From positions 13,863 through 77,862 of the IMG/VR virus record IMGVR_UViG_3300012200_000001: DNA of 64,000 nucleotides. The stretch is one strand, 5' to 3'. Source of the stretch: a virus (taxonomy: Duplodnaviria > Caudoviricetes). A program made the position numbers and the translations under genes. Of this stretch, positions 5,293 to 58,691 are shown in pieces (position 1 is the first letter of the stretch; each line of letters opens with the position of its first letter). The notes under the pieces were generated by a model. That model had not been told where the DNA came from. It worked only from the letters and a program-made list of their open reading frames with translations, and searched no databases.

Positions 5293-5649
5293 GTGTGGCG
5301 TCTAGAAGATTTGACTGTGCCGCAGCGGATCGTCGCGACGGTGGTCATAGTTATTGCCGCTCTCTTGGTATTGTTCGTTGTAGGGATGTTCACGGTGGAG
5401 GGGCAGCCAATCGCCCTCGTGCCGCCGAGATTCGAGAGCCACCTAATCAAACTGGATAGGGAGGCAATCGACGAAGCGTACAAAGCGCACATCAGGAGGT
5501 TGTTCGATATCTGGGTGACGGACTATGCCGCGAATATTGGTCAGCCCCCTCGAGCGGTGAAGGGAGCCAACAATGCCAGAGGCGCGTATGTTCAATCTAT
5601 AACCGCGATTGAGAAGCGAGAATCAGTTCTCGCACCGGAGAGCAAATGA
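5293..5649 (+). CDS. Membrane-anchored protein upstream of the endolysin
   Basis: One N-terminal TM helix. Its stop overlaps the endolysin start (ATGA). Confidence 0.65.
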   Translation: MWRLEDLTVPQRIVATVVIVIAALLVLFVVGMFTVEGQPIALVPPRFESHLIKLDREAIDEAYKAHIRRLFDIWVTDYAANIGQPPRAVKGANNARGAYVQSITAIEKRESVLAPESK

Positions 5650-7172
5650 AAATAGTCATCAGTTCGGGGCACGGCTTGCACATCCGCGGGGCCGCGGGTC
5701 CAGAGCCTTGGGGCCTCGATGAGGTTGACGAGGCGCGTCGGGTCGTTGAGCAGGTCGCGACTGTGCTGCGGGGCGGTGGTGTCGATACGACCACTTACCA
5801 TGATGATGTCAGCGACGACCAGAATGAGAATCTCAACCGCATCGTCGATTTCCATAACAGCAAGACGCGCGACCTCGATATTTCGGTCCACTTCAACGCC
5901 AATGTGAGTACCAGCAAACCAGTAGGGACCGAGTGTTGGTATGTAACGCAGAGCACGCTGGCGGAAGCGGTTGCGACCGCTGTTGCCGATGCTGGTCACC
6001 TGATTGATCGAGGGCCGAAAAAAAGCACCTCGCTTTTCTTCCTCAATAATACTGAGGAGCCCGCGATTTTGATCGAGGTATGTTTTGTGGACAGCAAGGC
6101 CGACGCCGACCTATATCGGGGGAATTTTAATTCTATAGCTACGGCAATCGCGCAGGCGGTGTCAGGCGAGGCGATACAGCCGGGGCCAACACCGCCGCCT
6201 GTCCCTGAGCCCGTGCCGCCATCTGGCGATAGACCGACGCTGCAAAAAGGGGACAAAGGGCCTTACGTTTCTGAGCTGCAGAAGTCGCTGGGCGTGCTCA
6301 ATGCGGACGGCAATTTCGGTTCGATCACTGATACGTGGGTGCGAGCATTTCAAGCGGCATGCGGCCTGGGTGTCGATGGGAAGGTCGGGCCTAAGACTTG
6401 GGAGCAGGTTGACGATCTGGATGAGCGTGTAAGAGAGGGCGAGCCTTGTCTGCCGAAGAACGTCGCTGATCAGATTTACGCGATGGCAGCTCAATCGGAA
6501 ATCGCGGACTATGAGTGGCCGGATCGCGACATCACGCCTCCTGGATATGTGCCTGCCATGGCGATGTCCTTTGCGTATGCTGCGCGCTTATTGCAGGAGG
6601 ATGACGACGCCGTAACCATCATGGCCAAGGCGCAGGGCAGTTCCGACAAGGATGCGCTGGCTTGGTATGAGCAAGAATTCACCAAGCTCGGTATAAGCAA
6701 CAAGAAGGCTGGCATCGATACGTTGCGGCACCTATTCGTGATGATGATTGGACTTGGTCCACGCGAATCAAGTGCCCGATATTGTGAGGGTCGGGATTTA
6801 TCGGCCTCCAATGTTGAAAGTACGACAGCCGAGGCCGGTTTGTTCCAGACATCGTTCAATATCAGCAGCGCCAGCTCCGCGATCCCGCCGTTGCTTGATG
6901 AGTTCTGGCTCAACCCGAATGGGTTCCTAAAAGAGTTCAAGGAAAACGTCGAGCCGACAGCGAACAACTTGAACTGCTACGGCAGTGGCGACGGCGCGCG
7001 CTATCAGTGGCTGTCGCGGTTCTGTCCGCTGTTTCATGTGATGGTCACAGGTGTTGGTATGCGGACGCTTCGGCAGCATTGGGGTCCGATCAACCGGCGC
7101 GAGGTGACACTCAAGAAAGAGGCGGACGATCTGCTCAGGCAAGTACAGGAGTTGATTGAAGCGGTTGCGTGA
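5646..7172 (+). CDS. Modular endolysin: Amidase_3 + peptidoglycan-binding domain + lysozyme/SLT-like domain
   Basis: Zn-amidase motifs ISSGHG, E, DISVHFNA and PAILIEVCF. PGBD TLQKGDKGPYVSELQ...DGKVGPKTW. C-terminal RESS...AGLFQ. Confidence 0.88.
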   Translation: MKIVISSGHGLHIRGAAGPEPWGLDEVDEARRVVEQVATVLRGGGVDTTTYHDDVSDDQNENLNRIVDFHNSKTRDLDISVHFNANVSTSKPVGTECWYVTQSTLAEAVATAVADAGHLIDRGPKKSTSLFFLNNTEEPAILIEVCFVDSKADADLYRGNFNSIATAIAQAVSGEAIQPGPTPPPVPEPVPPSGDRPTLQKGDKGPYVSELQKSLGVLNADGNFGSITDTWVRAFQAACGLGVDGKVGPKTWEQVDDLDERVREGEPCLPKNVADQIYAMAAQSEIADYEWPDRDITPPGYVPAMAMSFAYAARLLQEDDDAVTIMAKAQGSSDKDALAWYEQEFTKLGISNKKAGIDTLRHLFVMMIGLGPRESSARYCEGRDLSASNVESTTAEAGLFQTSFNISSASSAIPPLLDEFWLNPNGFLKEFKENVEPTANNLNCYGSGDGARYQWLSRFCPLFHVMVTGVGMRTLRQHWGPINRREVTLKKEADDLLRQVQELIEAVA

Positions 7173-11520: not shown

Positions 11521-13107
11521 TTGGTATGGAGTTCTAACGTGAGCTACGTCACCTACCTCCGCGACTCGCTCCGCAACTTTGTCACGGGACTAGGTCAGCT
11601 CGGCGTCGATCCGAACAAGAGCGTTGAATACATTCTCACGCTGTTGGATCGAAACACTCTCGAAAATATGTATCGCGGAGATTGGTTGGCTCGCAAGATA
11701 GTCGAAGCGCCAGCCGAAGACATGACGCGCGAGTGGCGCGCCTGGCAAGCAAACCAGCAGCAGATTGAGGCGCTGGAGTTGGTTGAGAAGACCCTGGATC
11801 TTCAGCGCAAGGTCAAGCAATGGATCAGCAAAGCTAGATTGTACGGAGGCTCGGCACTCGTCATTGGCGTGGACGACGGTAATGATCCTAGCCAACCGCT
11901 TGATCTAGAAAAGTGCAGCAAGGATTGTCTGAAGTACGTGGTGGTGCTGCACCGCTTCGAACTCAATGCTGGTCCGCGCATCTACAACGTGATGGATCCC
12001 TACTACACGCGACCGGCCTATTACACCGTTGCGACGCCGATGTTTGGTTTTGAGGGCGGATCGGGGACGACGACGCCGTCGGTACGTGGACAGCCCGAGC
12101 AAGTGCCGGGTGCGGTCAATCCGGTCAAGAGCTTTTTCAGTAATGTGATTCCGTTTAGTAAAGGCCGACAACAAGAGCTAAGCACGATCCCCACAAACAT
12201 GGGCATGACACAGATTCATCCCAGCCGCGTGCTCGAGCTTCCTGGCAATGAGCTACCCGACTGGCGGCTTGCTCCGCTCGGCGGCGGCTGGGGCGATAGC
12301 GTGTTGCAGACCGTGGTCGATACGGTCAACAGTTTCACGGGCAGCATTCAATCCATTGCTGCAATGGTTAACGACGGCAAGATGGATGTTGTCAAAATCC
12401 CAAACATGGCGCTGAGCCTGATATCACCGGAATATAAGAACAAGATGCTTGATCGGTTCACTCTGTCGGCTCAGACCAAGAGTGCACTTTCCGTGCTGAT
12501 ATTGGACAAGGAGGAGGAGTGGGACCGGATACAGACCAATTATAGTGGCCTGCCGATGATCTTGCATGAGTTCATCACTCTCATCAGCGGTGCGGCCAGT
12601 ATTCCGGTTAGTCGTTTGTTCGGCACGGCATCGGGCATGGGATTGCAGGGCGGCAGTACGAGCGGCGGGCCGGACGATGTGCGCAACTATTACGATGATT
12701 GCGTGAACAAGCAGAAGAACGAGATCGCGCCGCGCCTCGCAATGCTCGACCAGGTGATGATGCGCAGTGCGCTCGGTAAGGCCGATCCTAACATTCACTA
12801 CGAATGGAATCCGCTGTGGCAACTCAGCGAAGGCGACAAGGCCAAGATCGGGCTTGAGAAGGCGCAAGCGACGCAAGTTTATGCAACCATTGGCATCATT
12901 AACGCGGATGCCTTCCGTGAAGGCGTGGTCAATCAGCTGATCGAGGATGGGACCTATCCGGGGCTCGACGATGCCATTGAAAAATATGGATCGGAACCAG
13001 AGGAAGGCGACGATACTGGAGGCTATCAACCCAGTGGCGAGCCCGCGCCCGATGCGAGTGGCGGAGGGAGTCCGGAACCAGGGCGGTTCAACTGGAAAGC
13101 ATCATGA
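11521..13107 (+). CDS. Portal protein (DUF1073-type)
   Basis: RDSLRNFVTGLG, YRGDWLARKIVEAPAEDMTREW, ARLYGGSALV, AASIPVSRLFG, NYYD. First gene of the head cluster. Confidence 0.92.
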   Translation: MVWSSNVSYVTYLRDSLRNFVTGLGQLGVDPNKSVEYILTLLDRNTLENMYRGDWLARKIVEAPAEDMTREWRAWQANQQQIEALELVEKTLDLQRKVKQWISKARLYGGSALVIGVDDGNDPSQPLDLEKCSKDCLKYVVVLHRFELNAGPRIYNVMDPYYTRPAYYTVATPMFGFEGGSGTTTPSVRGQPEQVPGAVNPVKSFFSNVIPFSKGRQQELSTIPTNMGMTQIHPSRVLELPGNELPDWRLAPLGGGWGDSVLQTVVDTVNSFTGSIQSIAAMVNDGKMDVVKIPNMALSLISPEYKNKMLDRFTLSAQTKSALSVLILDKEEEWDRIQTNYSGLPMILHEFITLISGAASIPVSRLFGTASGMGLQGGSTSGGPDDVRNYYDDCVNKQKNEIAPRLAMLDQVMMRSALGKADPNIHYEWNPLWQLSEGDKAKIGLEKAQATQVYATIGIINADAFREGVVNQLIEDGTYPGLDDAIEKYGSEPEEGDDTGGYQPSGEPAPDASGGGSPEPGRFNWKAS

Positions 13108-15098
13108 CGCTTGCTCTCAGCCTCTGCGGGCCCCACCGTGCTCTGCCCACGCATGCAGAGCTGCAGGATGCACGGGCTGGGAAAGACCCGACCAAGACGT
13201 ATTACCTACGCGCGCGCATGCGAGCGGAAGGTGACCGGCGCTGGCAGACGTTGGCGCAGACGGTGCGTCAGGCGTTGATCGAGCACGATCTCATAGGAAT
13301 GCGCGGTATCGGTCGGCTCCCATATGCCGACAAGGCCGAGGGCTTTGCGGCGTGGCTGCGTGAGGAGCTGCGGCACAAAGTATTCGGCTTGGACGGCCGT
13401 TGGCTCAGACCGTACGTGCAGCAGGCGGCCGTGATCGCACAGAAGCATGTGAACCAGTTAGCTCCTGGTGGGAAAGTTGACTCGACTCGAGTCGCTACCA
13501 TGGAGAACTTTGCAGTCAGCGAGCTACGCGGCATCTGTGAGGCGGCGCAGCAGCAGATGATCCGGGTCGTGACGCATTCGATCATGGCCAACGATACGCC
13601 GACGCAAGCGGCCAATGCGCTATCCGGCGTGATCAAGACCATGCGCAATCGCACGCGCGCTATGAGCGAGTATGTGATCGCCAAGACCCATGGCACTTGC
13701 ACGCTCAGCGCATTCCGTGATGCCGGAGTGCAGCAGGTTGGGATCATTCCCGAGCGATTGCGCAAGCGGCGTGTTGTGCAGGGTCCGCACGGTAAGACGC
13801 TCGTGAGCGATTGGCTACGTAGCCATTCATCTCGCGTAACTTTCTTCACTCACGAACGTGACATAAAAAAGTTACGTTCAGACAACCGCACGCAATCAAG
13901 GGACGCCAAGCAACCTGTCGGTGGCCCCGGCTCCCGTGTTAGCAGGACCGAGACGCCGTCGGCCGCCACGATTGCGCGTATCGAAAGGGCACAGGAGAAG
14001 ATCGAAGAGGTCGAGGGGATAGGGGGCGTCGAGGTGGTCACGGCGGGCGACGAGGACGTGTGCGTCATCTGCGAAGATATAAGCGACGAGGGCCCTTACG
14101 ATCTCGATACGGCGGAGTCGCTGATACCAGCCCACGCATGGTGCCGATGTAGCTTTTACCCTGCCGGTGAAACGACGGATGCGCTTTGGGATTGGGATCC
14201 GGAGCAGCATCCACGCGGCAAGACGTCAGAGCAATCGACAGGTGGAAGCTTTGCTCCTGGTGAATTACCGCTTTCGGGCGGTGGGGAACCAGAGCCGGGA
14301 AAGAACCGCTTTATCGAGGCGCTCGAGTCTGGCGAAGAAAAAATAGGCCAGACGTGGATGCAGCGCGGATCAACGCGAGATGTACAAAAGCTTGCGCGCG
14401 ATGCGGTCGTCAGCGTTGGTGATGATAATTTCGAAACCGCAGTCATTGTTGGCGAGCATCGTCCCGACGGGACACTTGTCGGAGCTGCCCCGGCGGGGGG
14501 TGCTCATAGTGTTGGTGTGTCGCCGAAACTGATAGCCAAATTCGGGGTGCATGAGCTGCATCATAATCATCCGTCACCATTACCTGTTTCCGGCCCGGAT
14601 ATCAGCTTGCTCAATCGACGTCCCGGGGAGTTGGCGGTGTGGGCGCACACCGATGACGCCTCGTCGAAGGCTAGCATCCCTGGCCGTGATGCCGAGCATC
14701 CAAACATGTCGATTGTCGGGGATGCCGATCCCAATGTTTATACATTGCGGGAGCCAAAGCCGACTGAAGCCTTCGATAGGTTCTTGATGGAATATCACGA
14801 CGAGGTTGGCAACGAAGCTGGAAACACCTTGCAGCGCCTTCAATACCAGCTGCGTAGAGAATTCGCAGACGAAAAGGAATTGGAGAGCGCCAACCGTTTT
14901 GTGCTCTATCATCCGCTGGTGCAAGGGCTGGTGAATGCGGGCCTGGTCAAGCATGATTATCAACCCGGGGCATTCGAGCGCGGGCTTTTGCGCAAACACG
15001 GTCGTGCCATCAAGCGGATCACCGAGATCGCTGACCGGGCCATGGCCGACGGAATCAAACGCCACAACCTGCATATCGCCGATGTTGGTCTCAATTGA
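13104..15098 (+). CDS. MuF (gp7-like) head morphogenesis protein with C-terminal JAB/MPN-like domain
   Basis: MuF Zn motif TAGDEDVCVIC...PAHAWCRC, then linker WDWDPEQHPRG, then E...HNHPSPLPVSGPD. Confidence 0.85.
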   Translation: MTLALSLCGPHRALPTHAELQDARAGKDPTKTYYLRARMRAEGDRRWQTLAQTVRQALIEHDLIGMRGIGRLPYADKAEGFAAWLREELRHKVFGLDGRWLRPYVQQAAVIAQKHVNQLAPGGKVDSTRVATMENFAVSELRGICEAAQQQMIRVVTHSIMANDTPTQAANALSGVIKTMRNRTRAMSEYVIAKTHGTCTLSAFRDAGVQQVGIIPERLRKRRVVQGPHGKTLVSDWLRSHSSRVTFFTHERDIKKLRSDNRTQSRDAKQPVGGPGSRVSRTETPSAATIARIERAQEKIEEVEGIGGVEVVTAGDEDVCVICEDISDEGPYDLDTAESLIPAHAWCRCSFYPAGETTDALWDWDPEQHPRGKTSEQSTGGSFAPGELPLSGGGEPEPGKNRFIEALESGEEKIGQTWMQRGSTRDVQKLARDAVVSVGDDNFETAVIVGEHRPDGTLVGAAPAGGAHSVGVSPKLIAKFGVHELHHNHPSPLPVSGPDISLLNRRPGELAVWAHTDDASSKASIPGRDAEHPNMSIVGDADPNVYTLREPKPTEAFDRFLMEYHDEVGNEAGNTLQRLQYQLRREFADEKELESANRFVLYHPLVQGLVNAGLVKHDYQPGAFERGLLRKHGRAIKRITEIADRAMADGIKRHNLHIADVGLN

Positions 15099-18000
15099 TC
15101 CGCCGGGATTGTTTGCAAAACCAGCACAGTGGCAGAGCTTTGTCGCTGATATGGAGCAGCGGCTAGCTGAGGGCCACGAGGATGCAAGGCCGTGGCTCGA
15201 ATGGGGGCGCAAGCATCTCGGCACGCATGACTTCGATCCTGACCAGCCGCGCGACCCGCAGGGTAAATGGACTGGCACGGGAGGAGGGACTCCGGCCTAT
15301 CATGGTTCGCCGTATGCCTTTTCCGAATTTGCGAGCAAGGTTGGCAGCGGTGAGGGCACGGATGCCTTCGGCCACGGGCTGTACTTTTCCGAGAACCGCG
15401 CGGTCGCCGAGCATTACCGGCGCGCGCTGAGCGGGCTGCGCGGGCAACCGGCGGGCGGCGTGCTGTACGAGGTCGATCTCGACGTCGAGCGCAGCAAGCT
15501 GCTTGACTGGGACAAGCCGCTAAGCCAGCAGCCGGAAATCTCCAAAATCCTGCGCGATCAAATTGGAACGGCGGCGACGCCGTTCAGCGGCGAAACGAAC
15601 AAGGATATTGCCGACCTGTTGCGTAAGGATGCGAAGGGCGAGGCGATCATGGAGAGGGTCAGCGGCTCCCCGCAAGGCGTTCTGCACAAGCTGAAGGAGG
15701 GCAGCGATGCGCTGCATGAGATCGGCATTCAGGGCGTGAAATATCTCGACAAGCGTTCGCGGGCAAAGGGTGAGGGTACGAGCAATTACGTCGTGTTTGA
15801 TCCGAAGCGCGTCCACATCGTGCATGCCCACCAGTTTGCAGATGCTGCGAAGAAGGGCATCAGGGTCTTCTTCATGGGGCTGGGGCATCCGCATCAACAG
15901 CCAGCAGGCGGCGGAGACGCCTATGACGATGATCGGGCACGCTACGATCCTGGTGAAATCAGCGTGCATGGTGGTGAGTTTGCACCGGAAGGCGGTGCGG
16001 TTGGCGGGCCTGATTACGAACCAGGCGGCGTCAAGTATGAGGAAGGTCGGCGGCTTACCAGCAATTACATCGCCCGCGAAGCCTCTGGCTATAAGCCCAA
16101 CTCACGTAAAGTGCCGGACGTTGCGCAGGAATTGAATGGCCGTGCGCAGAAAATTCTTCAGCAGGAAGTTAATGTCAAAGAAATCACGCGGGAGAACGCT
16201 ACTCCGCAGCTTGAGAATTACATCGCTAAGACGTTGGCTATGGAGCTGAAGGACGGGTTGCGCAACGGTCATTCGACGGAGACGTGGTACAGCGACAAGA
16301 TGCAGCGAACGATGCAGATTGCATCAAAGCTGCATCCCGAAATCAGCGCCGATCCAGGTAAACGGTTTGCGTTCATTGCTGCGCTTAGCATTGTTAGCCA
16401 GGGCGAGCGTGTTAACCGAGCCGGACGAAATGCCGATGAGGCATACACGCGCTTCAACAAAGACGGGAAATTTCCGACCGATATCAAGGTTGCTGATCCG
16501 AACATCACCGGCAATTTTCAGAAGATGAATAAGCTGATTGCTCGCTTTGGCCTCGAAGGCACCAAGAAAATTTTTGATACCCAGTACACCAATCGTGATC
16601 TGCTTGAGGCGACTGGCTATAAAGTTGGCAAGACCAACATGGATGACAAGGTCTATGGGTCTGCTGTGTTGGGCCCGAAGATCGGACAGGGCTTTTATCA
16701 GAATCTGAATGGCAACTTTGACCCGCTCACGATGGATATGTGGTTCATGCGTTCGTGGGGGCGTCTCACTGGCACTGGTATTGGCCATACCGACATGAAC
16801 GAGCAGCGCGACAAGCTGCGAACCGAGCTGAAGCGCAAAGGCAAAGCAGCGCCGTCAAGCATGGAGAGGCTTCTGGGCATTGCACAGAAAACAATAGATG
16901 TGCATGAGGCTGACTATAAAGAAACACGTAGACCGAAGACTCCGCTCGAACATGCCGCGGAGCGTTTTGTCTACAACTACAGTGGGGCGATGGTCGAAGC
17001 ACCGAAGGGTGGCAATGATCGTATTTGGATTACATCGGTCTTCGATAAAGCGCTTAATCTCTTGCATAAGGAAGGAACTCATCTTACGCGCGCGTCTGGG
17101 CAAGCTACGTGGTGGACGCCTGAGCAAGGACTGTACAAACGTCTTGGTGCGCGCGTCCCTCAATACGACACTGACTATGCTAAAGTGTTTGAGAGGATCG
17201 CCAGGGAAAAGGGCGTGACCGTGGATGCGAAAATGACACTCGAGTTCGCGCCGTGGATCGATGATCCCGATTCGCCTGATAACATGACCGAAGCTGAAAT
17301 GGATCGCATGGTCGAGGGCTTTGTCCATCTTCAAAGTAAAGCAGCAAGAGACTATGACCCGGATCAGCCGCGCGTACCAAAGGGTTCGGGCGAGGGTAGC
17401 GGAGAGTGGACAGCAGCCGGTGGCGGCGGTGGCTTTGAGTTTGTCTCGCCCAATATTGAGCACACCGGTTTCGAAGGTGCCCTACGTGGGCTGACCGGTG
17501 ATCGACAGCGGGCCTTGCGCCTAGCGGCGACCGAGATCGATGGCACTCTCGGCCTCGACAGTGTCCACACCAACATTGTGGGAGCCTGGTCCGATGGTGC
17601 CGAGAACTCGATCCTGAGCGAGGTGGAAAATCCGGACTGGGACAAGCTCAAGCTCAGCGGTGCAATGAAGGGTTATCTGGCCGACCAGAAGTCGGTCCTG
17701 TTGTTCAAGCAGGACGACAAGGGTAAGGCGGTCCTTTACAAGTGGGCGATGCCTGGTACGCTCGAGAGTGCCCACAGGGAGTTGATGCAGGCTGGTATTA
17801 CGGACCACACCTTGCAGAAACAGACATCTGGCGTTACGGCATATGTAGTTGATCGAGACGGAAAATTGCATGACAAAATCGCCCACGCCTCCTCCGGGGC
17901 AGACGTCGAATACCAGTTCGGACGCGCAGAATTTATCGGAACTACAAAAGACGACGGAACCGACCGCCAGCAGCGAGACGACGCGCGAAGAGCTTATGCG

Positions 18001-18489
18001 GAAATTATCAAGCAATCCCCGATTCAAAATGGCACGGAAGTCTGGGACCGGGTTCACAATCGGTGGGGTGAAGCGCTAAATCCCAAGAGCGGCAAGGTCA
18101 TTCAGATCGGCCGCAATCAGCCGTTTGAGGTGATGATCAATCCGAGTGAACGTGACTTGCGTAGCATGGTGCGCGAGTCTTCGGATCAAGAGATTCGTGT
18201 TTTACTCGATAAAGACAACAATCTATTTGCTTGGGATGCGCGGCATGCAATTCACGCTTCCGTTGAGGATGAACTACAGCTTAAGGCCAAGGAGTGGGAT
18301 AATTGGATTTTACATCGCGGTAAGTTGGTGTCTGGACGCTATTTTCGCCCTAATCCAAATATTTCCGAGGATGTTCAGCGACGTCATTTGCGTCAGGGAG
18401 AGACCGAGGTTCGTAGTTGGTTAAAACAAGTTCCGGCAATCGCCGCGTTCAATACAGCGCTTAGGGATGCGTCAGCTTCGATGATATGA
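15082..18489 (+). CDS. Large polyvalent head-associated protein: ART-like + HhH-glycosylase-like + two unknown domains
   Basis: YHGS...GHGLYF...LYEV...NYVVFDP; GPKIG...LTMDMWFMR; three DPDQPR-type linkers. Start reassigned to ATG 15082, which overlaps the MuF stop. Confidence 0.8.
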   Translation: MLVSIDPPGLFAKPAQWQSFVADMEQRLAEGHEDARPWLEWGRKHLGTHDFDPDQPRDPQGKWTGTGGGTPAYHGSPYAFSEFASKVGSGEGTDAFGHGLYFSENRAVAEHYRRALSGLRGQPAGGVLYEVDLDVERSKLLDWDKPLSQQPEISKILRDQIGTAATPFSGETNKDIADLLRKDAKGEAIMERVSGSPQGVLHKLKEGSDALHEIGIQGVKYLDKRSRAKGEGTSNYVVFDPKRVHIVHAHQFADAAKKGIRVFFMGLGHPHQQPAGGGDAYDDDRARYDPGEISVHGGEFAPEGGAVGGPDYEPGGVKYEEGRRLTSNYIAREASGYKPNSRKVPDVAQELNGRAQKILQQEVNVKEITRENATPQLENYIAKTLAMELKDGLRNGHSTETWYSDKMQRTMQIASKLHPEISADPGKRFAFIAALSIVSQGERVNRAGRNADEAYTRFNKDGKFPTDIKVADPNITGNFQKMNKLIARFGLEGTKKIFDTQYTNRDLLEATGYKVGKTNMDDKVYGSAVLGPKIGQGFYQNLNGNFDPLTMDMWFMRSWGRLTGTGIGHTDMNEQRDKLRTELKRKGKAAPSSMERLLGIAQKTIDVHEADYKETRRPKTPLEHAAERFVYNYSGAMVEAPKGGNDRIWITSVFDKALNLLHKEGTHLTRASGQATWWTPEQGLYKRLGARVPQYDTDYAKVFERIAREKGVTVDAKMTLEFAPWIDDPDSPDNMTEAEMDRMVEGFVHLQSKAARDYDPDQPRVPKGSGEGSGEWTAAGGGGGFEFVSPNIEHTGFEGALRGLTGDRQRALRLAATEIDGTLGLDSVHTNIVGAWSDGAENSILSEVENPDWDKLKLSGAMKGYLADQKSVLLFKQDDKGKAVLYKWAMPGTLESAHRELMQAGITDHTLQKQTSGVTAYVVDRDGKLHDKIAHASSGADVEYQFGRAEFIGTTKDDGTDRQQRDDARRAYAEIIKQSPIQNGTEVWDRVHNRWGEALNPKSGKVIQIGRNQPFEVMINPSERDLRSMVRESSDQEIRVLLDKDNNLFAWDARHAIHASVEDELQLKAKEWDNWILHRGKLVSGRYFRPNPNISEDVQRRHLRQGETEVRSWLKQVPAIAAFNTALRDASASMI

Positions 18490-18625
18490 CCGAAGGAGGG
18501 CGCGTTCAGGTTGAATGGGGGCTTCCTTAAAGACGCAAAGTCGAGTAATTACGATTTGATGCAGGGAATCGTTTCTGAGTCCGAGGCTGGCCGTCGGGGA
18601 GACACGTCGGCCACGGAGCAGATGA

Positions 18626-21600
18626 ATGCCTTACAAGGCAAGCCAGATCCCGAGCGGGACTGAGAAGGTTCCCAAGCACGGTCAGGCTATTTTCCGATCA
18701 GCATTCAATGCCGCCTTCGAGAAGTATGGCGAGGAGCGCGCGCACGCGATTGCGTGGTCGGCCGTTAAAGCAAAATATAAGAAGAAGGGCGACCGCTGGG
18801 TCAGCAAGGACGGATATGCCGTCATGCATCGGCTCGGGGACTACGACCCCGATCAGCCGCGCGTACCTGCCGGTGAATCAGGTGGCGGTCAGTGGGCTGG
18901 CGGCGGCGGTGGCCCCGCCGGTCGCGGCGAGCTGCATCTGACCAAGGCAGAAGGACTATCTGAAAAACCCGAGATCGCACGCACCTTTGGTTTTGGTCAG
19001 GGCATCGAAGGAATAAGCGGCGGGCTTGGAGGCGCTGAGGGAGAACTTGGTGCCGGGACATTCGGCAAAAGCGAACCTGCTGGTGGCGCGAAGGCCTCAC
19101 CCGGCGTTCCCAAGGAATTGGTGAAAGCCATTGAGGATCACGTCGGCGGGATGGGTGGTGAATTTGGCCAGCACGGCAGCGCCGATCTCACCAGGTGGCT
19201 GATGCTCGCGCGCAAAGACCAGATGCTCAAACTCATCGATGACATGCCAGCCAACAAGCGGCCAGCGCTGCTGCTGCACAAGGGTGATGAGAAGGCGGGC
19301 ATGCCGTCAGTATGGTTGTTGGGTTGGAGTGGGACCGAGCAGACGGACATCCACGATCATGTTCGTTCCGAAGTCGGCATTTCGGTGTTGCGCGGTAATA
19401 TTGCCAACGAATGGAATCATCCTCCTGCGGGCTATCTCGATGCCGCGAAGAGCCCTGACGGGCTGCGTATGCCGGTCAACAAGGACACGTTGCCCGAAGG
19501 CACAACTGTGCAGCTCGAGGCTCCGTATATCCACCTGATGCGCGGCACCGCGCCGTCGAAGGCGTCGGGAGAGCGCGACATTTCGGTGCATGCATATCAC
19601 CCGCCACTCAAGCAGATGCACTATTTCAAATCTCGAGGCGGTGCGCTGCATTACGACGGCGATTGGGATGAGGATCGCCCGCCGTCCGAATATTCGACTC
19701 GCGATTGTGCTTGCTGTTCGTTGCTTGACGAGGCGGCAGGCCATCCGTTCCGAGGTAACCAATATACGACGGGAGAGAGCGGCGGTGGCAATGGGCAACC
19801 AGCTGAGAGTACCGGTGAGCATGGTCAGAAGGTTAAGGCATTCCTCAGCTTATCGTCCGCTAAGTCGGTCATCAGAAGCGCAATCAATGAAACGATCAGG
19901 GCTGGAGAGCACATCGTAAAGCATGAATCCGAGATCGCCGTAACGAGCGGCATCCTCGCTGCCTTGACGGCGTTGGGTGCGCCATCGGTGCCAGCGGCAG
20001 TCTGTGCCACGATTGCTGGTTATGCGGTGCACCGCGTGGCCCATAGTCTTGGCATCGATGCCGGAGCTGCACACCGCTTATTGAAGGCCACGACCGGCGG
20101 GCTGCGGAATATGTCTGAACGAGCAAGGCGCTCTGGCATGCATGGCGGCGGCTTCCCCGAGCAGGCATTAGGTTTCGGCGATGCGGATGACGGTTCCGTC
20201 TCCCGGTCTTTGCGCTTGCTCGACGATGCATTGAATCGTCACACACTCGATGAGCTTGATAGATTTATCGAGGAGTACGAATCCGGCCGCTTCCATCGGG
20301 ATGAAGAGGCGGGTCATCCATTCCGCGGCAACCAGTACACCACGGGTGAAAGCGGTGGCGGAAAAGGCGAGGAGGGCGGCGGAGGGCGAGGCGGTGGTGG
20401 CGAGGAGGTCCATCCCGGGAAGGGCTACTCGAAGGAGGCCCGCGTTGACGAGAAAGGCGTCATCCATACCGAGAATGTTGATGATGCAGCGCGTGCGCTT
20501 ACCGAAGGGCGCAAGGTTGAACTGAATCAACCACGGCAAGTCTCAACCTTGCTCGACAAGCTTGGTGAGATAGCCAAAGCGGCGCTCGCTAAAGGCGAGA
20601 AGGCTCCAAATTTTAATTTGTGCGATGTGTCGGTAAAAGGCACCAACCTGTTCTGCGCGGAGACTAAAGGCTTCACGCGCATTGAGATGCCGCAGCTCGA
20701 GGATACCAAAGGTTTCCTCGATTACCTGAAGGCTCGAGGCCACACGGTAAAAGACGGCGAAGAATATGCGGCGCACTTGCGAGCAACACAGAACGAACTG
20801 AAGGGCGCGCAGGTCGCGGCCCTCGCCAATTTCATGGAGACCGGCATCGGTAAGGACGGCAAGGTCGACAAGGAAGCAGCCGCTAAGCTACAAGACCGGC
20901 CCATCGTTATTAGCAAGGACGATTACATTCTCGATGGCCACCATAGCTGGGCGGCAAAAATTGGCATGGACGCGCGCGACAACATCTTGGCTGACGACAA
21001 AAAGATGAATGTGCGCCGGGTCGACACCGACATCATCACATTGCTGTACGCCGCCGATGACTTCACCGGGGGTAAAGGGAAAAAAAGCGCAAAGGATCGC
21101 GCAAAGGATCGCGTCATGATGGACCAAAGGAAACAATGTCCCGGGTGTTACGGGAGCGGTTTGGACCTTGAAGGCGACCAGTGCGATGAATGCGACGGTA
21201 CTGGTTATATCGATAATGACGATGATGATGTTGAGGATGGCCGACGACGGCAGACAGATTCGATACATCTCATCGAGAACGCCGTATTTGTCCAAGATCG
21301 CGATGGCAAGATCGTACGCAAAACCAAGGATGGCTACCTCGTAGCGAATGCACGTATCGCTCGTACCGGCATTCAGCTCTACGACGGAGCAGAGATCGGT
21401 AAGCCCGACATGGGCGTGGTGCGGGTCTATCGACCGGAGAGCGAAGTCTTCAGCGCCAAGGCGATGCACAGCCTCGCGAACAAGCCGATCACGCTCAATC
21501 ATCCGCCGGTCATGGTGGATGCGAAGAATTGGGACGAATACGCGGTTGGTCACATAGGTGAGGAAGTCGCGCGCGATGGTGATTCGGTGCGCGTGCCGCT

Positions 21601-22474
21601 GGTGATCATGGATAGCAAGGCCATTGAGGCTTACGAGAAACATGGCGTGAAAGAATTGTCAGTTGGCTATTCGACCGACTTGCGGTGGGGCAAGGGCCGC
21701 ACACCGGATGGTGAAATCTACGATGCCAAGCAGACTGCGATACGCGGGAATCATCTGGCCGTCGTCCCCGCTGCCAGAGGCGGATCGCGATTGAAGATCG
21801 GGGACGATCACCAGAAAGGAAGGACCGACATGGTGAAGATTCTCGTAGACGGTCAGAGCATCGGGTTCGAGGACGAACTCGCTGCCAAGCACGTACAAAA
21901 CTTTATCGGATCGCTGCAAACGCAGTTGGATGCTGCCAGGAAAAAGAACGGCAACAACAATAACAAGGAGGGCAGTGCTGCCGAGGAAGAGCAGGAGAGC
22001 GAGAAGGAAGAGCGCGGCGAGAAGGATGCTGCATTCGCGGCCATGAAAGGCGAGGTGGCGGCGCTCAAGAAGCAACTCGCTGACGCTCTTGCCAAGACTG
22101 ATCCCAAAGCCATCGATGCGGAGGCGGAGCGGCGGATCGATCTGCTGCTGAAGGCCGATGCCGTGATGGAGGGCAAGGCCGACTTCAAAGGCAAGCCGGA
22201 TACGGAGATCGTGCGCACCGTCGTCATGACTAAGATGGGCGATGCCGCTAAGGACCTCTCCGACGCCGAGATGGTGGGCGCATTCAAAATCCTGACTGCG
22301 AACCTCAAGCCGCGTTCAGGCACAGACCGTCTCGCAGATAGCTTGTTGCTGCTCGGTCATGGCGGCGGCAGCAGCGATCAGACCAATCCCAAGGCGATCA
22401 GAGACAAAGCCTACGCGGATTATGTCGCCAATACCTCGAACGCCTGGAAGAATCCTCGCGGCGCGGCACAGTAA
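18626..22474 (+). CDS. Polyprotein: ChaB + cysteine-dioxygenase-like cupin + ParB/Srx-like + Zn finger + DUF2213-type prohead protease + scaffold
   Basis: AFNAAF...AHAIAWSAVK; IHDH...H...SVHAYHPP; ILDGHHSWAA; CPGCYGSG/CDECDGTG; DGYLVANARIARTG...LSVGY...GNHLAVV; acidic coiled-coil C-terminus. Confidence 0.87.
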   Translation: MPYKASQIPSGTEKVPKHGQAIFRSAFNAAFEKYGEERAHAIAWSAVKAKYKKKGDRWVSKDGYAVMHRLGDYDPDQPRVPAGESGGGQWAGGGGGPAGRGELHLTKAEGLSEKPEIARTFGFGQGIEGISGGLGGAEGELGAGTFGKSEPAGGAKASPGVPKELVKAIEDHVGGMGGEFGQHGSADLTRWLMLARKDQMLKLIDDMPANKRPALLLHKGDEKAGMPSVWLLGWSGTEQTDIHDHVRSEVGISVLRGNIANEWNHPPAGYLDAAKSPDGLRMPVNKDTLPEGTTVQLEAPYIHLMRGTAPSKASGERDISVHAYHPPLKQMHYFKSRGGALHYDGDWDEDRPPSEYSTRDCACCSLLDEAAGHPFRGNQYTTGESGGGNGQPAESTGEHGQKVKAFLSLSSAKSVIRSAINETIRAGEHIVKHESEIAVTSGILAALTALGAPSVPAAVCATIAGYAVHRVAHSLGIDAGAAHRLLKATTGGLRNMSERARRSGMHGGGFPEQALGFGDADDGSVSRSLRLLDDALNRHTLDELDRFIEEYESGRFHRDEEAGHPFRGNQYTTGESGGGKGEEGGGGRGGGGEEVHPGKGYSKEARVDEKGVIHTENVDDAARALTEGRKVELNQPRQVSTLLDKLGEIAKAALAKGEKAPNFNLCDVSVKGTNLFCAETKGFTRIEMPQLEDTKGFLDYLKARGHTVKDGEEYAAHLRATQNELKGAQVAALANFMETGIGKDGKVDKEAAAKLQDRPIVISKDDYILDGHHSWAAKIGMDARDNILADDKKMNVRRVDTDIITLLYAADDFTGGKGKKSAKDRAKDRVMMDQRKQCPGCYGSGLDLEGDQCDECDGTGYIDNDDDDVEDGRRRQTDSIHLIENAVFVQDRDGKIVRKTKDGYLVANARIARTGIQLYDGAEIGKPDMGVVRVYRPESEVFSAKAMHSLANKPITLNHPPVMVDAKNWDEYAVGHIGEEVARDGDSVRVPLVIMDSKAIEAYEKHGVKELSVGYSTDLRWGKGRTPDGEIYDAKQTAIRGNHLAVVPAARGGSRLKIGDDHQKGRTDMVKILVDGQSIGFEDELAAKHVQNFIGSLQTQLDAARKKNGNNNNKEGSAAEEEQESEKEERGEKDAAFAAMKGEVAALKKQLADALAKTDPKAIDAEAERRIDLLLKADAVMEGKADFKGKPDTEIVRTVVMTKMGDAAKDLSDAEMVGAFKILTANLKPRSGTDRLADSLLLLGHGGGSSDQTNPKAIRDKAYADYVANTSNAWKNPRGAAQ
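21830..22474 (+). CDS. Probable nested in-frame scaffold protein (internal start)
   Basis: Strong SD AAAGGAAGGA 5 nt upstream of in-frame ATG 21830, right after the protease domain. Confidence 0.6.
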   Translation: MVKILVDGQSIGFEDELAAKHVQNFIGSLQTQLDAARKKNGNNNNKEGSAAEEEQESEKEERGEKDAAFAAMKGEVAALKKQLADALAKTDPKAIDAEAERRIDLLLKADAVMEGKADFKGKPDTEIVRTVVMTKMGDAAKDLSDAEMVGAFKILTANLKPRSGTDRLADSLLLLGHGGGSSDQTNPKAIRDKAYADYVANTSNAWKNPRGAAQ

Positions 22475-22531: not shown

Positions 22532-23014
22532 ATGTTGACTCCGGCCCCCGTTCAAACCGACTACATTCGCTATCAACTTCCCGCCCAAAACGGGATGCTT
22601 GCTAGCTCGATCAACTACTCGGCGGACACGCGGATTGTAGAGGTCGTCAGTGGCGGTGCCACTGCTATCCCGTTTGGTCGCGCCGTCAGTCAAGGCGTAA
22701 AACCCAAAGGCTGCCACCTCGGCGGCACCGCCTTTGTGGGCCTTTCCCGCGCTGATCCGACGGTCGCTCGCTCGGAGACTCTTCCTATCGATGAGTATCC
22801 GGAGAACGACAACGCGGGCATCCTGGTGACCGGCGACCTGTGGGTCATCGTTGCCGGTGATGTGACTGCTGGCCAGTCGATCCATTACAACACAACCGAC
22901 GGCAAGCTTAGCGCCGCCGGTGGCACCGCCATCGACAGCTCACGCTGGATGACGACGGCTACATCTGGCCACCTCGCCGTCGCACGTCTCGGCAACATCG
23001 CTGGCAAAGCGTAA
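22532..23014 (+). CDS. Head decoration/cement protein
   Basis: Lies between protease and capsid. AIPFGRAV...GDLWV...AG..V.Y...DG.L pattern. Confidence 0.8.
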   Translation: MLTPAPVQTDYIRYQLPAQNGMLASSINYSADTRIVEVVSGGATAIPFGRAVSQGVKPKGCHLGGTAFVGLSRADPTVARSETLPIDEYPENDNAGILVTGDLWVIVAGDVTAGQSIHYNTTDGKLSAAGGTAIDSSRWMTTATSGHLAVARLGNIAGKA

Positions 23015-23035: not shown

Positions 23036-24004
23036 ATGAATATGCGCCTTGATATCTACGACAACCCTCAACAGGCGCTCGGCTTCCTGTTGAGCCAGAC
23101 TGCTTTCATCGAGCAGGAAGTTTACCGGACGCAATACCCGGAAATAATTTATCAGCAGCTCATTCCTATCGACACCGCTGCTGGTGAGTGGGCCAAATCG
23201 GTCACCTACTTCAGCCTCGACCGGGTCGGTCAGGCTCAATGGCTGAGCAACGTAGCGACCGATATGCCGTACGCCGATGTCAATCGTAATAAGTACGAGC
23301 AAGGCATCGAGATGGCTGGCATTGGCTACACCTACACGCTCGAGGAGATCGGCCAGGCGTTGATGATTCCTGGTTTGAACCTCACCGGGGAGCGTGCCGA
23401 CGCAGCAAGATTCTCCTACGAAATGTTCATGGACAACCATGCGTATCGTGGAGATGCGACCAAGAACGTGACCGGATTGTTCAACAATCCGACCGTCACG
23501 GTGGTCACAGCGAAGACCGGTGCAGGAGGTTCGACGCACTGGTCGCTGAAGACGGCGGACGAGATCATCGGCGATGTGCAGGATGCTCTCACCGGCATTT
23601 ACGCAGGAAGCCTGACCGTTGAGATGGCGGACACGGTGTTGCTGCCAGTTGGCGAAATGCAGAAGCTCGCCAACATTCGCATCCCGAATACCTACGGCAA
23701 CGCACTCGACTATCTGGCTCGCTACAATCTCTACACGTTCAACACAGGTGCGCCGCTCACGATCCGCGGTGTGATTGGTCTCGACTCTGCGGGCGCAGAC
23801 GGTGGCGGACGCATGGTCGTATATCGGCGCGATCCGCGTGTGCTCAAGTTACACATTCCAATGCCGCACCGCTTCCTGCCGGTGTTCCAGCGTAGTGCGA
23901 TCCAGTTCGACATCCCTGGCATCTTCCGCGTTGGCTCCGTCGAGGTTCGGCGTCCGGGTGCCGTGCGGTATGTCGATGGCATCAGCGGTGTTGGGTCGCC
24001 CTAG
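23036..24004 (+). CDS. Major capsid protein (DUF2184-type, HK97 fold)
   Basis: GFLLSQTAFIE..VY..QYP, GYTYTLEE, TGLFNNP, RMVVYRRDP.VLKLHIPMP, EVRRPGA.RY.DGI. Confidence 0.92.
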   Translation: MNMRLDIYDNPQQALGFLLSQTAFIEQEVYRTQYPEIIYQQLIPIDTAAGEWAKSVTYFSLDRVGQAQWLSNVATDMPYADVNRNKYEQGIEMAGIGYTYTLEEIGQALMIPGLNLTGERADAARFSYEMFMDNHAYRGDATKNVTGLFNNPTVTVVTAKTGAGGSTHWSLKTADEIIGDVQDALTGIYAGSLTVEMADTVLLPVGEMQKLANIRIPNTYGNALDYLARYNLYTFNTGAPLTIRGVIGLDSAGADGGGRMVVYRRDPRVLKLHIPMPHRFLPVFQRSAIQFDIPGIFRVGSVEVRRPGAVRYVDGISGVGSP

Positions 24005-54020: not shown

Positions 54021-55118
54021 TTACTTCCGCTTCTTGGCCGTCCGCAGCTCCGCGATCCGGCTCAGGACCATACCTTCCAGGCGCTTACGCACGGAGAGCT
54101 GGACCTTGAGGTCCGCCCGCATCTCTTTTTCGCCATCCCAGCGGGCCTCGAGATCGTCAGGGTTGTTGACCTTTTCGATCCACCTAGCGGCGTAGGCCAT
54201 GTACTGATCGGCCGTTTCTGGGGGCTTGGGAGGCTCAGGAGCGGCTTGTTTGGGCTCGGGGATTGGCTGGGCCTGGGGTGTCTCTTCCGCCGCGTCCTGG
54301 GGCTTCTCTGCGGCCTTGCGGGTCTTCTTGGTGGCCTTGGCTTCCTGGGCTTGTTCCGCCTCCTTGGCGAGACCGGCATCGACCACGTCGGTCTGGAAGC
54401 CCGCACCCTCCATCTTCCCCGGCAAGCGCTGCATTAGATTGGGTGAGGGCGGGATGACATTGGTTTCGTCCTGGGTCGTTTCCGAAAATTCCTCACGGTC
54501 GTATACGCCACCGAGGAGTTCCGGGGCATGGCGGCGGCCGAAATTCCGAACGGCATAATAGCCAAGCTGCTGGTCAGCATCTTTCGTCCACAGCGGTGAA
54601 CCTTTCACCACGCCGTCTTGGTTCTTGGGAGGGCGGCACACTCGGATCGGCGGCGTCGTATATTCCACCGCCGTTGCCTCGCCCTTGAACGTCGCGGTGA
54701 CCGTGCAAACGCGTTCCTCGCCCTCTCCTGAGTAGCTGTACCGGGGCCGTTCCTTTAGGAGTCCGGAGCTGAGAAGGATCGCGGCATGGACGGCCGCATC
54801 GTAGGCGATCAACGATTCCGCTTTGGCAATATATGAATGTTGAGAAACCCAGTAAGGCTCCAGTCTCCATCGTAACGATTGCGTCACAATCGCCAAACAG
54901 TCACCGGGATTGCCTTTGAGATACGCAGGAACGGAATGCTTTGCCTGCGCCATCACCTTGGCGAACTCGACGCATTCTCGATACTCCGCGAACGTGAGGC
55001 CAGCCCATCGGTCGACGACCATGTCACCGACGCGCTTGCGCTCCAATGGGGCGTCAACGCGCGTGAGCTGCTGAGCCAGTGATGGCTCAATGACATCCTG
55101 TTCGGTGCTATTAGTCAT
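54021..55118 (-). CDS. recT: RecT-family single-strand annealing protein
   Basis: VP.YLKGNPGDCLAIV.Q..RW.LEPY.V.QHSY, SPLW..D.DQQL.YYA.R..GRRHAPELLGGVY. Near a RecE-like gene. Confidence 0.8.
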   Translation of the reverse strand: MTNSTEQDVIEPSLAQQLTRVDAPLERKRVGDMVVDRWAGLTFAEYRECVEFAKVMAQAKHSVPAYLKGNPGDCLAIVTQSLRWRLEPYWVSQHSYIAKAESLIAYDAAVHAAILLSSGLLKERPRYSYSGEGEERVCTVTATFKGEATAVEYTTPPIRVCRPPKNQDGVVKGSPLWTKDADQQLGYYAVRNFGRRHAPELLGGVYDREEFSETTQDETNVIPPSPNLMQRLPGKMEGAGFQTDVVDAGLAKEAEQAQEAKATKKTRKAAEKPQDAAEETPQAQPIPEPKQAAPEPPKPPETADQYMAYAARWIEKVNNPDDLEARWDGEKEMRADLKVQLSVRKRLEGMVLSRIAELRTAKKRK

Positions 55119-56957: not shown

Positions 56958-57658
56958 TAGTGAATGATCCTGTATGCTGTGCGGGTTGACAGGAAATCAT
57001 CGTCGGCGTTCACAAACACAGGATCAATCCAGATTCGTTTCACCAATAGATTGCCTACGCCGTAATGCTGGTTTCTGATATGTCCCCGCCTTAGATGCGG
57101 CCGCACAGGCCGTCCTGGTCGAGCCTCTTGGTCTGTTCCTCTCTCAAGCGAAGGGAATAGCTTGATCGTAGTGATGTACTCGTGCGCGTTAGAACCTATG
57201 CCGAGCCTTTGCCGCTTGTTCTGTCGCGTGACCTTCTCAATGCCTTTGCTTGCCAGTATTGCGACCAGTCCATCTCGCCACCATGAGCGCTTGTGAGCCG
57301 ATCCGGTTGTTTCCCTCATTCTGTGTCGGAACAAAAGCCTATGTTTATCTCGCTCTGGCGGCATTCGTTCAAACGGCACAGGTGAGGATTCCAGTTTAAG
57401 ATTAAATTCCGGCTGCGGTTCTCCTAGGCGGCCCACAATCACGCAATCCCACACAAATCCTTCCTCATCGGACCTATGCACGTCATGCGCTTCCGTAAAA
57501 AACATGGGACTTCTGATAATCCTGACGTTGATGCTTCCATTGTAGGGAAGCGAATATAGGCCAATCTCTCTAAGACCAGCCACGGTCGCGCCAACTTCTT
57601 CCTCAGACAAAGCGGTCCACACGCCTTGATCTATGCAGAATAAATGTGCGCGGGTCAT
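56957..57658 (-). CDS. Hypothetical protein with C-terminal RPHLRRGHIR motif
   Basis: RPVRPHLRRGHIRNQHYG...RIWIDPVFV. Confidence 0.75.
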   Translation of the reverse strand: MTRAHLFCIDQGVWTALSEEEVGATVAGLREIGLYSLPYNGSINVRIIRSPMFFTEAHDVHRSDEEGFVWDCVIVGRLGEPQPEFNLKLESSPVPFERMPPERDKHRLLFRHRMRETTGSAHKRSWWRDGLVAILASKGIEKVTRQNKRQRLGIGSNAHEYITTIKLFPSLERGTDQEARPGRPVRPHLRRGHIRNQHYGVGNLLVKRIWIDPVFVNADDDFLSTRTAYRIIH

Positions 57659-58632
57659 GACTTTCGGTCCAGCGTGATCGTTTCATCGATCCGCTTCTGA
57701 TCGAACTCGGATAGCTCGATGTACTGCGCGTCTTCACGGTTGCCGCGCGGTCCCGGCCAGCGTTTTTCCCGCATGCATTTATCGAACAGAGCAATCGCGT
57801 TCTCGCAGGCCTCAATGCCGCGTTGAATATCATTCTCCTTGAGCGTGACGATCTCAATGCAATGTGGCTCAGTGTTCTCGCAAAAGACCAGCGTGTAGGA
57901 ATTGAGCGGTTGGCCGAGGATCGCACGCACGCCCATCGCTGTGAGTCCGGCTTGCATGTAATAACCATAGTCGCGGATCGCGCGTTGCATGTCAGGCCAC
58001 ATAATCGACTTGGAGAGTTTCAAATCGACAAAGTCGAGCGAGTCCTTCGGCGTGGCGTCCGGACGAATCTTGAGCCAAATTCCGGTACGGTGTTTCCAGA
58101 ACCAGCTATGCTCGATCAATCCATTGAGCAATCCGGCCAGGATCAATGGATCCTTTTCTAATTCGCGGGCGATTCCCCTGATCGCCTTCATGTTGTCGGC
58201 GGTGACGACAGTCAACCCGAGATCGGCTTGCTTCTTGAGCCACAGCTTGCAGATGGTTTTGTTCGACTGCCAGGCTTCGCCATTGATCGTGGCGGGACGC
58301 ATGACAAACAACTCGCGGAAGTCGGCTTCACCAAACAGTAAGTGATGTGCCGCGCGACCTAAGACGAAGGCTTTCTTCTCGTCTTCATCGTCGTCAACGG
58401 TACGTTCCTGATTGTACGGGCTCCGACACCAGTAGTGTGCGGGGCTCGCCTTCACCCAGGGCAATGGGCTGTACAGGATACGTAGGCTGGAGGAGCTTAT
58501 ACTCGGCTCGATGCAGATATCGCCGTGGTAGTCCTCGAGCGAGATGTTGGAGTACACTCCCGGAAAGCGAATCCGCTTTCCGTCCCACGGCCTCGGTTTC
58601 AATGCCGCGATTGTTTTGCTGAGAGCAACCAT
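57655..58632 (-). CDS. RecE/exonuclease VIII-like PD-(D/E)XK nuclease
   Basis: YH.....ISSS.L, FVLGRAAH.LL, EHSWFW...LKIRPD...VDLK, Y.Y.MQA..... Start reassigned to ATG 58632 on the basis of a GGAGG RBS. Confidence 0.85.
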   Translation of the reverse strand: MVALSKTIAALKPRPWDGKRIRFPGVYSNISLEDYHGDICIEPSISSSSLRILYSPLPWVKASPAHYWCRSPYNQERTVDDDEDEKKAFVLGRAAHHLLFGEADFRELFVMRPATINGEAWQSNKTICKLWLKKQADLGLTVVTADNMKAIRGIARELEKDPLILAGLLNGLIEHSWFWKHRTGIWLKIRPDATPKDSLDFVDLKLSKSIMWPDMQRAIRDYGYYMQAGLTAMGVRAILGQPLNSYTLVFCENTEPHCIEIVTLKENDIQRGIEACENAIALFDKCMREKRWPGPRGNREDAQYIELSEFDQKRIDETITLDRKS

Positions 58633-58691
58633 TTGGCGGCCTCCGCTTTCCGCAGTCGTCATTGGCGACTCGTTAATCCGCCGGGGAATCA

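Follow-up and report, generated by a model that had tools for sequence, protein, structure and literature searches.

Tag-headed putative cargo modules in three large proteins of the head gene block of an uncultured tailed phage

The DNA analysed here (the window, 64,000 nucleotides) comprises bases 13863-77862 of IMGVR_UViG_3300012200_000001, a complete 77,862-bp IMG/VR phage record with direct terminal repeats, from an uncultured phage of the Caudoviricetes. Between its portal gene and its cement and capsid genes there are three genuine forward genes, named here A, B and C (664, 1135 and 1282 codons, together 9.4 kb), whose products are strings of modules separated by a recurring short peptide, called here the tag. 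Here it is proposed that the block encodes three "polyvalent" head-cargo proteins and that the main role of the tag is that of a recognition or loading signal, a reading to which we give somewhat better than even chances. An earlier note, made from the sequence alone, had remarked that three large proteins stand where MuF and the scaffold protein normally take about a quarter of the space. This is true: the nearest cultured phages have the same frame, with a MuF protein of 272 amino acids (aa) and a DUF2213-scaffold of 377 aa in Sinorhizobium phage HMSP1-Susan, and 300 and 368 aa in Aminobacter phage Erebus, that is, about 2 kb, or 21% of the 9.4 kb. According to Pfam, structural models and homologue alignment, gene A has two modules, gene B four to five, and gene C seven to eight. 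A megablast search of the block against cultured phages gave an 81-nt portal stretch as the sole match.

Two forms of the tag are present. The first, D-x-D-P-[DE]-Q-(H)-P-R...G..[WF] followed by a glycine run, has four copies, and the second, H-P-F-R-G-N-Q-Y, also followed by a glycine run, has two; with one decayed tag, the number comes to seven. Translation of all 77,862 bp in six frames placed the six intact tags in the three open reading frames (ORFs) of the block and nowhere else, and all tags lie between Pfam domains or confidently modelled folds. The coincidence of domain boundaries with recurring linker peptides that had been noted earlier is thus confirmed, the tags being found exactly at module borders and nowhere else in the genome. 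In both structural models the tags are of low confidence, while the folds on their flanks have a predicted local distance difference test (pLDDT) above 90, which suggests that the tags behave as linear motifs and not as folded domains. Tags 5 and 6 have the same 18 residues, but 13 of their 18 codons differ, all of them synonymously, indicating that selection conserves the peptide and not the DNA. Self-cleavage of the tags at an Asp-Pro or Asn bond was weighed but dismissed, since neither bond is kept in all tag variants.

The tag is also present in many other phages. The exact DNA pattern for H-P-F-R-G-N-Q-Y was found in at least 100 stretches of IMG/VR, against about one expected by chance, and the flanks outside the pattern are conserved as well (K 59%, G 94%, D 91% and G 100%), with the consensus [IVL]-x-K-G-D-x-x-G before the H. 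Of 84 unique complete ORFs, half (42) have the tag no more than 60 residues from the first possible start, and in several it begins at residue 2; the other tag type is likewise found near the N-terminus of free-standing homologues. Many small free-standing proteins of the IMG/VR loci L006-L105 have in common a conserved pre-leader of about 20 residues, M-[ST]-N-P-F ... E-I-L-K-G-D, directly before the H-P-F-R-G-N-Q-Y tag. At least seven tags are present on one contig, IMGVR_UViG_3300045974_000513, for which the PHROGs search gave only a neck-protein neighbour, and the Pfam search of ten random H-P-F-R-G-N-Q-Y ORFs gave one ADP-ribosyltransferase (ART). The exact pattern for the D-P-D-Q-P-R-D-P form recovered 9 stretches only, as tags of this type vary too much to be caught by exact patterns. 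A tblastn search of cultured phages with the tags on their own gave no match, such queries (24-27 aa) being too short and too rich in glycine, and a literature search for the tag motif found nothing relevant.

A tag with nothing in front of it cannot serve only to separate domains, and the product of gene B is tagged without having an anchor; the tag is therefore read first as a recognition or loading signal. Judged from these sequence contexts, the tag looks more like an address label than a cut site, with cutting as a possible second use. A broader proposal, that the tag, in its D-P-x-Q-P-R...G-x-W and H-P-F-R-G-N-Q-Y forms, is a portable and widely shared address label which loads any protein bearing it into the procapsid, or passes it to the ejection route, independently of covalent fusion to a head protein, is possible, with the chances somewhat against it.

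The comparison with relatives, which gave dozens of homologues per protein search, agrees with the earlier expectation of cargo swapping at the linkers around constant cores: modules and their order vary, and the MuF-like, portal and ChaB/DUF2213-scaffold anchors are constant. The same modules turn up in MuF-like proteins, portals (PF06381), DUF2213-scaffolds and free-standing proteins, in most cases preceded by a tag. A tag is located at most 60 aa upstream of 35 of the 62 cargo-module N-termini in homologues, compared with 6.2 ± 2.3 at random positions. Two modules of gene B, the glycosylase-like and the alpha+beta one, occur in either order, behind MuF-like cores, behind PF06381 portals, or in free-standing proteins with a tag near the N-terminus. 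The MuF-like core of gene A is common to 50 homologues in which the C-terminal cargo is swapped, and in relatives it carries NUDIX, two kinds of ART, flavin reductase, an intein-bearing insert and other cargo; Acb1, which acts against the cyclic-oligonucleotide-based antiphage signaling system (anti-CBASS), is found with NUDIX, ART and flavin reductase on the same anchors. The hydrophobic, ParB and cupin modules of gene C are present in L061 in a different order, in a separate ORF beside the scaffold gene, and the two tag types interchange at the same position behind ChaB in orthologues (P0010 and P0012). Around the variable block, relatives keep the portal...scaffold-cement-capsid frame. In a related phage (L106, 6781-9724), an insertion of ten small opposite-strand genes separates the MuF-like polyvalent gene from the scaffold gene. 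In P0013 and P0016, an intein-like insert (starting with Cys and ending with Asn, then Ser) interrupts a conserved module of about 60 residues between DUF2213 and the scaffold helices, and the MuF-like relative P0229 has a Pfam intein-splicing match.

The features of the block are listed in the table below. For the first part of gene A, PHROG minor head and head morphogenesis families match residues 278-361 (E 5e-7 to 5e-6), a cysteine motif ending in C-R-C is found at residues 320-349, and the gene directly follows the portal gene, motif and position both being those of MuF. Pfam gave no MuF (PF04233) match for gene A, one of 15 relatives matched at E 0.0032, below the cut-off, and hhalign of the core against two canonical MuF proteins gave a probability of 1.5%. 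The MuF identity, to which PHROG, the post-portal position and the C-R-C motif point, is thus weaker than the earlier MuF-JAB call had assumed. The JAB half of that call stands at the level of a motif (E444, H487-x-H489, S496 and D499, with a spacing of 6 instead of 7) in a C-terminal domain with no Pfam match and weak Atlas leads to JAB (0.80-0.83). The sole homologue of this domain, P0228, has the architecture Acb1, tag and the same domain.

Gene B overlaps gene A by 17 nt. A fusion of the two by frameshifting was rejected: the frame of gene B is +1 to that of gene A, it has an ATG of its own, at which the database gene call begins; the overlap is judged to be translational coupling. Its ART-PolyVal segment, scanned alone with Pfam, scored 33.6 bits against a cut-off of 31.2. 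The large module that follows, of about 450 residues and previously listed as unknown, models as an HhH-GPD (helix-hairpin-helix) DNA-glycosylase-like fold, an assignment that is new here and that also gives support from the model and its structural neighbours to the "HhH" noted earlier in gene B. The module has no Pfam family at E up to 1, and Foldseek of the model against the PDB gave nothing at E <= 0.001; the match comes solely from an exhaustive aligner, for which the best 23 structural neighbours among 48,161 chains were all HhH-GPD glycosylases or their kin (Z 9.7-6.0, the tool's middling range for helical proteins, with 170-230 residues aligned). The HhH hairpin G-P-K-I-G and, after it, a P.T.D.W.MR loop with an Asp are invariant in 29 sequences, and a Lys is absent from the lyase position (read by eye). 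This arrangement agrees with the HhH-GPD superfamily, in which two helical lobes carry an HhH hairpin and a catalytic Asp comes about 20 residues after it. In addition to its fusions to portals and MuF in relatives, this module was observed at 28% identity inside proteins of about 1700 residues (P0199-P0207) and in 39-kb phages (Limnohabitans phage DC33); in records PQ492659, MW202640 and MW202722 it is annotated as hypothetical or "crystallin beta/gamma motif-containing". The alpha+beta module has 30 homologues, and its structural matches are 6zm9 (Z 8.4, root-mean-square deviation 6.2), 7ock (Z 7.3) and 9gab (Z 6.1); its model bears a weak resemblance to phage S-adenosylmethionine (SAM) lyase, taken here as a lead only.

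Gene C encodes the longest product found among the 160 nearest representatives of the DUF2213 family. N-terminal extensions of at least 50 aa are present in 76 of these 160, and of at least 400 aa in 12. The N-terminal ChaB domain is shared with many relatives of gene C, and the phrog_530 match spans DUF2213 together with the helical scaffold tail. From the earlier domain list for this protein, ChaB, the cupin (35 bits, Pfam cut-off 23) and DUF2213 are supported by Pfam, the zinc finger falls below the cut-off with its motifs present, and the ParB-like module is assigned via Atlas only. The same ParB-like module was found on the MuF proteins P0165 and P0168. The hydrophobic module has a 32-residue stretch that is the only membrane-like segment in the three proteins.

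Table. Positions of the head block features in the window (position 1 is the first base of the window).
Feature	Position	Strand	Evidence	Remark
Portal	11521..13107	+	PF06381 E 3e-85; phrog_146	Frame of head block
Gene A	13104-15098	+		664 aa; start overlaps portal stop
Divergent MuF-like minor head protein (anchor), gene A residues 1-362	13104..14189	+	Ends in CxxC...CRC motif	
Tag 1 (D-W-D-P-E-Q-H-P-R type)	14190..14252	+		Between MuF-like core and C-terminal domain
Candidate JAB/RadC-like cargo domain, gene A residues 395-664	14286..15095	+	E...HxH...S..D motif	
Gene B	15082-18489	+		1135 aa; open frame from 14935, database gene call P0164 starts at ATG 15082
Gene B leader, 49 residues	15082..15228	+		
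Tag 2	15229..15288	+		
ART-PolyVal ADP-ribosyltransferase module	15295..15813	+	PF18760 E 8e-8; phrog_873	
Decayed tag	15940..16008	+		Core Q-P-R part deleted relative to P0165; between ART and glycosylase-like module
All-alpha module, HhH-GPD DNA-glycosylase-like fold	16012..17349	+	AlphaFold2 (AF2) model, pLDDT 82	
Tag 3	17350..17433	+	Low pLDDT	
Alpha+beta (double ferredoxin-like) module	17434..18078	+	AF2 pLDDT > 90	
Gene B C-terminal module, 136 residues	18079..18486	+		Poorly modelled
Gene C	18626-22474	+		1282 aa
ChaB domain	18626..18838	+	PF06150 E 4.7e-16; PDB 1sg7 match	Usual N-terminus of scaffold family
Tag 4	18839..18913	+		Gly-rich spacer after, to ~19150
Cupin (cysteine-dioxygenase-like) module	19151..19732	+	PF05995 (CDO_I) E 1.3e-8; HxHxxxE metal motif	
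Tag 5 (H-P-F-R-G-N-Q-Y type)	19736..19789	+		
Hydrophobic-stretch module	19808..20305	+	Kyte-Doolittle 1.81 over 19 residues	Homologous module in L061
Tag 6	20309..20362	+		Peptide identical to tag 5
ParB/Srx-like module	20408..21040	+	D-G-H-H motif; Atlas 0.94 to ParBc_2 cluster; phrog_2859 E 1.4e-17	
DnaJ-type double CxxCxGxG zinc finger and acidic run	21041..21277	+	PF00684 E 4.6e-5, below cut-off	Both motifs present
DUF2213 / Pa193 gp24 N-domain (putative head protease)	21278..21820	+	PF09979 E 6.8e-50; PDB 9b40_G profile match E 1e-16	
Coiled-coil scaffold part	21821..22471	+	phrog_530 covers residues 885-1278, E 6.5e-90	
Cement protein	22532-23014	+	PF22758	Other side of frame
Major capsid protein	23036-24004	+	PF09950	Other side of frame

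In the mechanism proposed here, the modules (ART, HhH-GPD glycosylase-like, alpha+beta and possibly SAM-lyase-like, cupin, ParB-like, JAB-like and a membrane-active-looking one) would each be preceded by a disordered peptide tag of 20-30 residues ending in a glycine run, and would enter the capsid by three routes. In gene A the cargo would ride behind the MuF-like minor head protein, to which it is fused, and in gene C it would sit within the internal scaffold protein, with the ChaB head before it and the DUF2213-scaffold body after it; gene B would supply it as a free-standing chain headed by a tag. By analogy with the T4 capsid-targeting sequence, the tag would be read by a conserved head component, and the glycine run would be a flexible joint and a possible place for trimming. 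On ejection of the DNA the cargo would be delivered along with it, to counter host defence at an early stage. A counter-defence role is plausible, considering what relatives carry on the same anchors, and the predicted set of this phage, with an ART, a DNA-base enzyme, a ParB-like NTPase or nuclease, a cupin and a segment with a membrane-like stretch, fits a conflict with the host. The gene structure, the domains identified, the constraint on the tags and the shuffling in relatives are seen in the sequences, and packaging, any cleavage, ejection and a counter-defence function are inferred from them. From the earlier interpretation, the head-module polyvalent cargo proteins are supported, and the shuffling and the border tags also stand; release by the phage's own protease is the least supported step.

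Several observations weigh against the loading-signal reading. For most tag-bearing ORFs elsewhere, the available flanks gave no link to head genes. Inside gene C the borders from ParB to the zinc finger and on to DUF2213 are tagless, and in most relatives the alpha+beta module is joined directly to the glycosylase-like module. The MuF, JAB and ParB assignments are without Pfam confirmation, and the protease role of DUF2213 is given by annotation only. A 140-kDa scaffold fusion in at least a hundred copies would compete for space with 78 kb of DNA, so that most copies would have to leave or be degraded; on the same grounds of volume, the high copy number that the earlier note expected from fusion to the scaffold is doubtful. 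Virion proteomics for this phage or for any tag-bearing relative was not found.

The principal alternative, which follows the earlier interpretation, is that the tags are cleavage sites of the DUF2213 prohead protease, which would free the enzymes inside the prohead, with targeting purely by fusion to MuF or the scaffold. This agrees with the location of the tags at module borders and with the assemblin-like peptidases described at the C-termini of polyvalent proteins (Iyer et al. 2017, PMC5512222). DUF2213 is also the only candidate for a head protease, since the genome is without S78, ClpP or S49 proteases; its H959, D996, S1012 and H1043 are invariant in 160 relatives (their catalytic roles being assumed), and PHROG annotates the family as head maturation protease. 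The domain has no Pfam S78 match, however, and hhalign of the DUF2213 profile against the S78 domain of P0014, a single-sequence template, gave a probability of 0.1%. Furthermore, P0014 (L107:1194-3380) and P0015 have a canonical HK97-type S78 protease domain fused before ChaB-DUF2213-scaffold, which suggests that the head-protease role in this capsid lineage may belong to another domain, or be shared by DUF2213 with one. The DUF2213 namesake, Pa193 gp24, was detected in virions, with a helix-turn-helix of the protein bound at the capsid interior under the five-folds; its authors describe it as a scaffolding protein, never mention a protease, and could not tell whether it is cleaved. No demonstration of protease activity in the DUF2213 family was found in the literature searched. 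As for the tags themselves, gene B is tagged without an anchor, many free-standing proteins have the tag anywhere from residue 2 to about residue 40 with nothing to release, 16-20 conserved residues are long for a protease site, and a DUF2213 gene is found in the flanks, which are short, of 3 of 100 H-P-F-R-G-N-Q-Y loci. Taken together, cleavage as the primary function of the tags is considered unlikely.

Still less probable is that the tags are flexible joints kept for module recombination, carrying no signal, in polyproteins that act uncut like the N4 virion RNA polymerase. The glycine runs, the predicted disorder and the extensive shuffling at the tags would suit such joints, as would the 29-nt stretch that two tags share at 93% identity, and both the N4 virion RNA polymerase and ArdC are transferred uncut (PMC5512222). 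Conservation of the peptide with saturated synonymous change speaks against it, as do the near-invariance of particular residues at about 16 positions in phages unrelated to one another, which goes far beyond the needs of a spacer, and the N-terminal tags that have nothing to join. Finally, it is very improbable that the proteins are not delivered at all, acting as late cytoplasmic enzymes or as MuF-type polymorphic toxins released at lysis for interbacterial competition. For this reading, temperate phages have MuF-toxin fusions that have been described as polymorphic toxins (Jamet et al. 2017, PMC5576092), and the ART and nuclease-like modules could be toxins. Against it, the modules are not followed by any small gene resembling an immunity gene, two carriers out of three are internal head proteins, one of them from a family found in virions, the same modules are found on portals in relatives, and recombination and methylase genes are present with no integrase seen in the ORFs scanned.

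Other features of the window were also recorded. The C-terminus of the portal (13040-13107) is Gly/Pro-rich and finishes in P-G-R-F, resembling a vestigial tag tail without cargo behind it; at the spot of this P-G-R-F end, relatives have full tags and cargo. Upstream of the portal, an endolysin gene (5646-7172) occupies the place first expected for the terminase. A ParB-DNA methyltransferase fusion and a RecT/exonuclease VIII recombination pair are encoded elsewhere on the minus strand (60200-61462, 54021-55118 and 57655-58692).

Outside T4 and P1, little is known of how phages place proteins in the capsid to be sent out with the DNA. The locus offers a compact test case, having three kinds of carrier (MuF-like, scaffold and none), about a dozen modules and one tag, under strong selection on the peptide, that recurs in many phages, uncultured and unrelated to one another. 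Should the tag prove to be a loading signal, sequence could point out counter-defence enzymes that are candidates for injection, and a handle for loading capsids would be available. If the broader address-label proposal were true, one could tell from sequence which proteins thousands of uncultured phages inject, and phage capsids could be filled with proteins of choice. Additionally, the direct fusion of the glycosylase-like module to the portal in relatives suggests DNA-base chemistry at entry.

The concept of such proteins is known. Iyer, Burroughs, Anand, de Souza and Aravind (2017, PMC5512222) put forward the idea of phages packaging multi-domain effectors fused to MuF or portal proteins, with a peptidase-like C-terminal domain; a zincin-like metallopeptidase is present in about 36% of polyvalent proteins and is not obligatory (PMC5512222). 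The polyvalent gp47 of phi24B was detected in virions, and MuF-ART fusions have been noted in cultured phages. Like the polyvalent proteins, those described here have several conflict-type domains per polypeptide, are encoded among late virion genes, include ART-PolyVal and putative ParB-like and RadC/JAB-like domains, have MuF or portal fusions and a putative C-terminal peptidase-like domain, and have the same predicted fate, packaging in the head and injection. They differ in the lack of a zincin hub domain (no HExxH peptidase family match in the three proteins), in the ChaB/DUF2213 scaffold as a carrier, in having one anchorless chain and tag-headed modules, and in the HhH-GPD-like, cupin and SAM-lyase-like cargo; none of the three has a Pfam match to an LPD family. 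The tag itself appears to be undescribed: in term searches, the word "linker" is absent from Iyer 2017 (PMC5512222), and "linker", "motif" and "cleavage" are absent from Jamet 2017 (PMC5576092), and no description of the tag, of the ChaB/DUF2213 scaffold as a carrier, or of glycosylase-like cargo was found in the literature searched.

The capsid targeting sequence of the T4 internal proteins and Alt is similar in that it is a short peptide placed before a cargo protein, which it directs to the prohead core; once trimmed, the cargo is injected with the DNA, and one of the T4 cargo proteins, Alt, is an ART. The T4 signal has no sequence likeness to the tag, has about 10 residues, is strictly N-terminal and is cut by gp21 at a known site, whereas the tag has 20-30 residues and is internal in several copies as well as N-terminal; the analogy is one of working and not of membership. 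The Dar proteins of P1 (DarA, DarB and DdrB) are also head-packaged counter-defence proteins, one of them ParB-like, with loading linked to head morphogenesis and processing; unlike the proteins of this block, they are encoded by separate genes outside the head block, have different domains, and have no shared tag that could be seen. The closest counterpart of the gene C carrier is Pa193 gp24 (PF09979; PDB 9b40 chain G), with a homologous DUF2213 N-domain (E 1e-16), the His/Ser/His motifs, a helical C-terminal part and the same gene order, before the cement and PF09950 capsid genes. It has 478 aa and no cargo, whereas the product of gene C, with 1282 aa, has in front of the same body about 880 residues comprising ChaB and four cargo modules.

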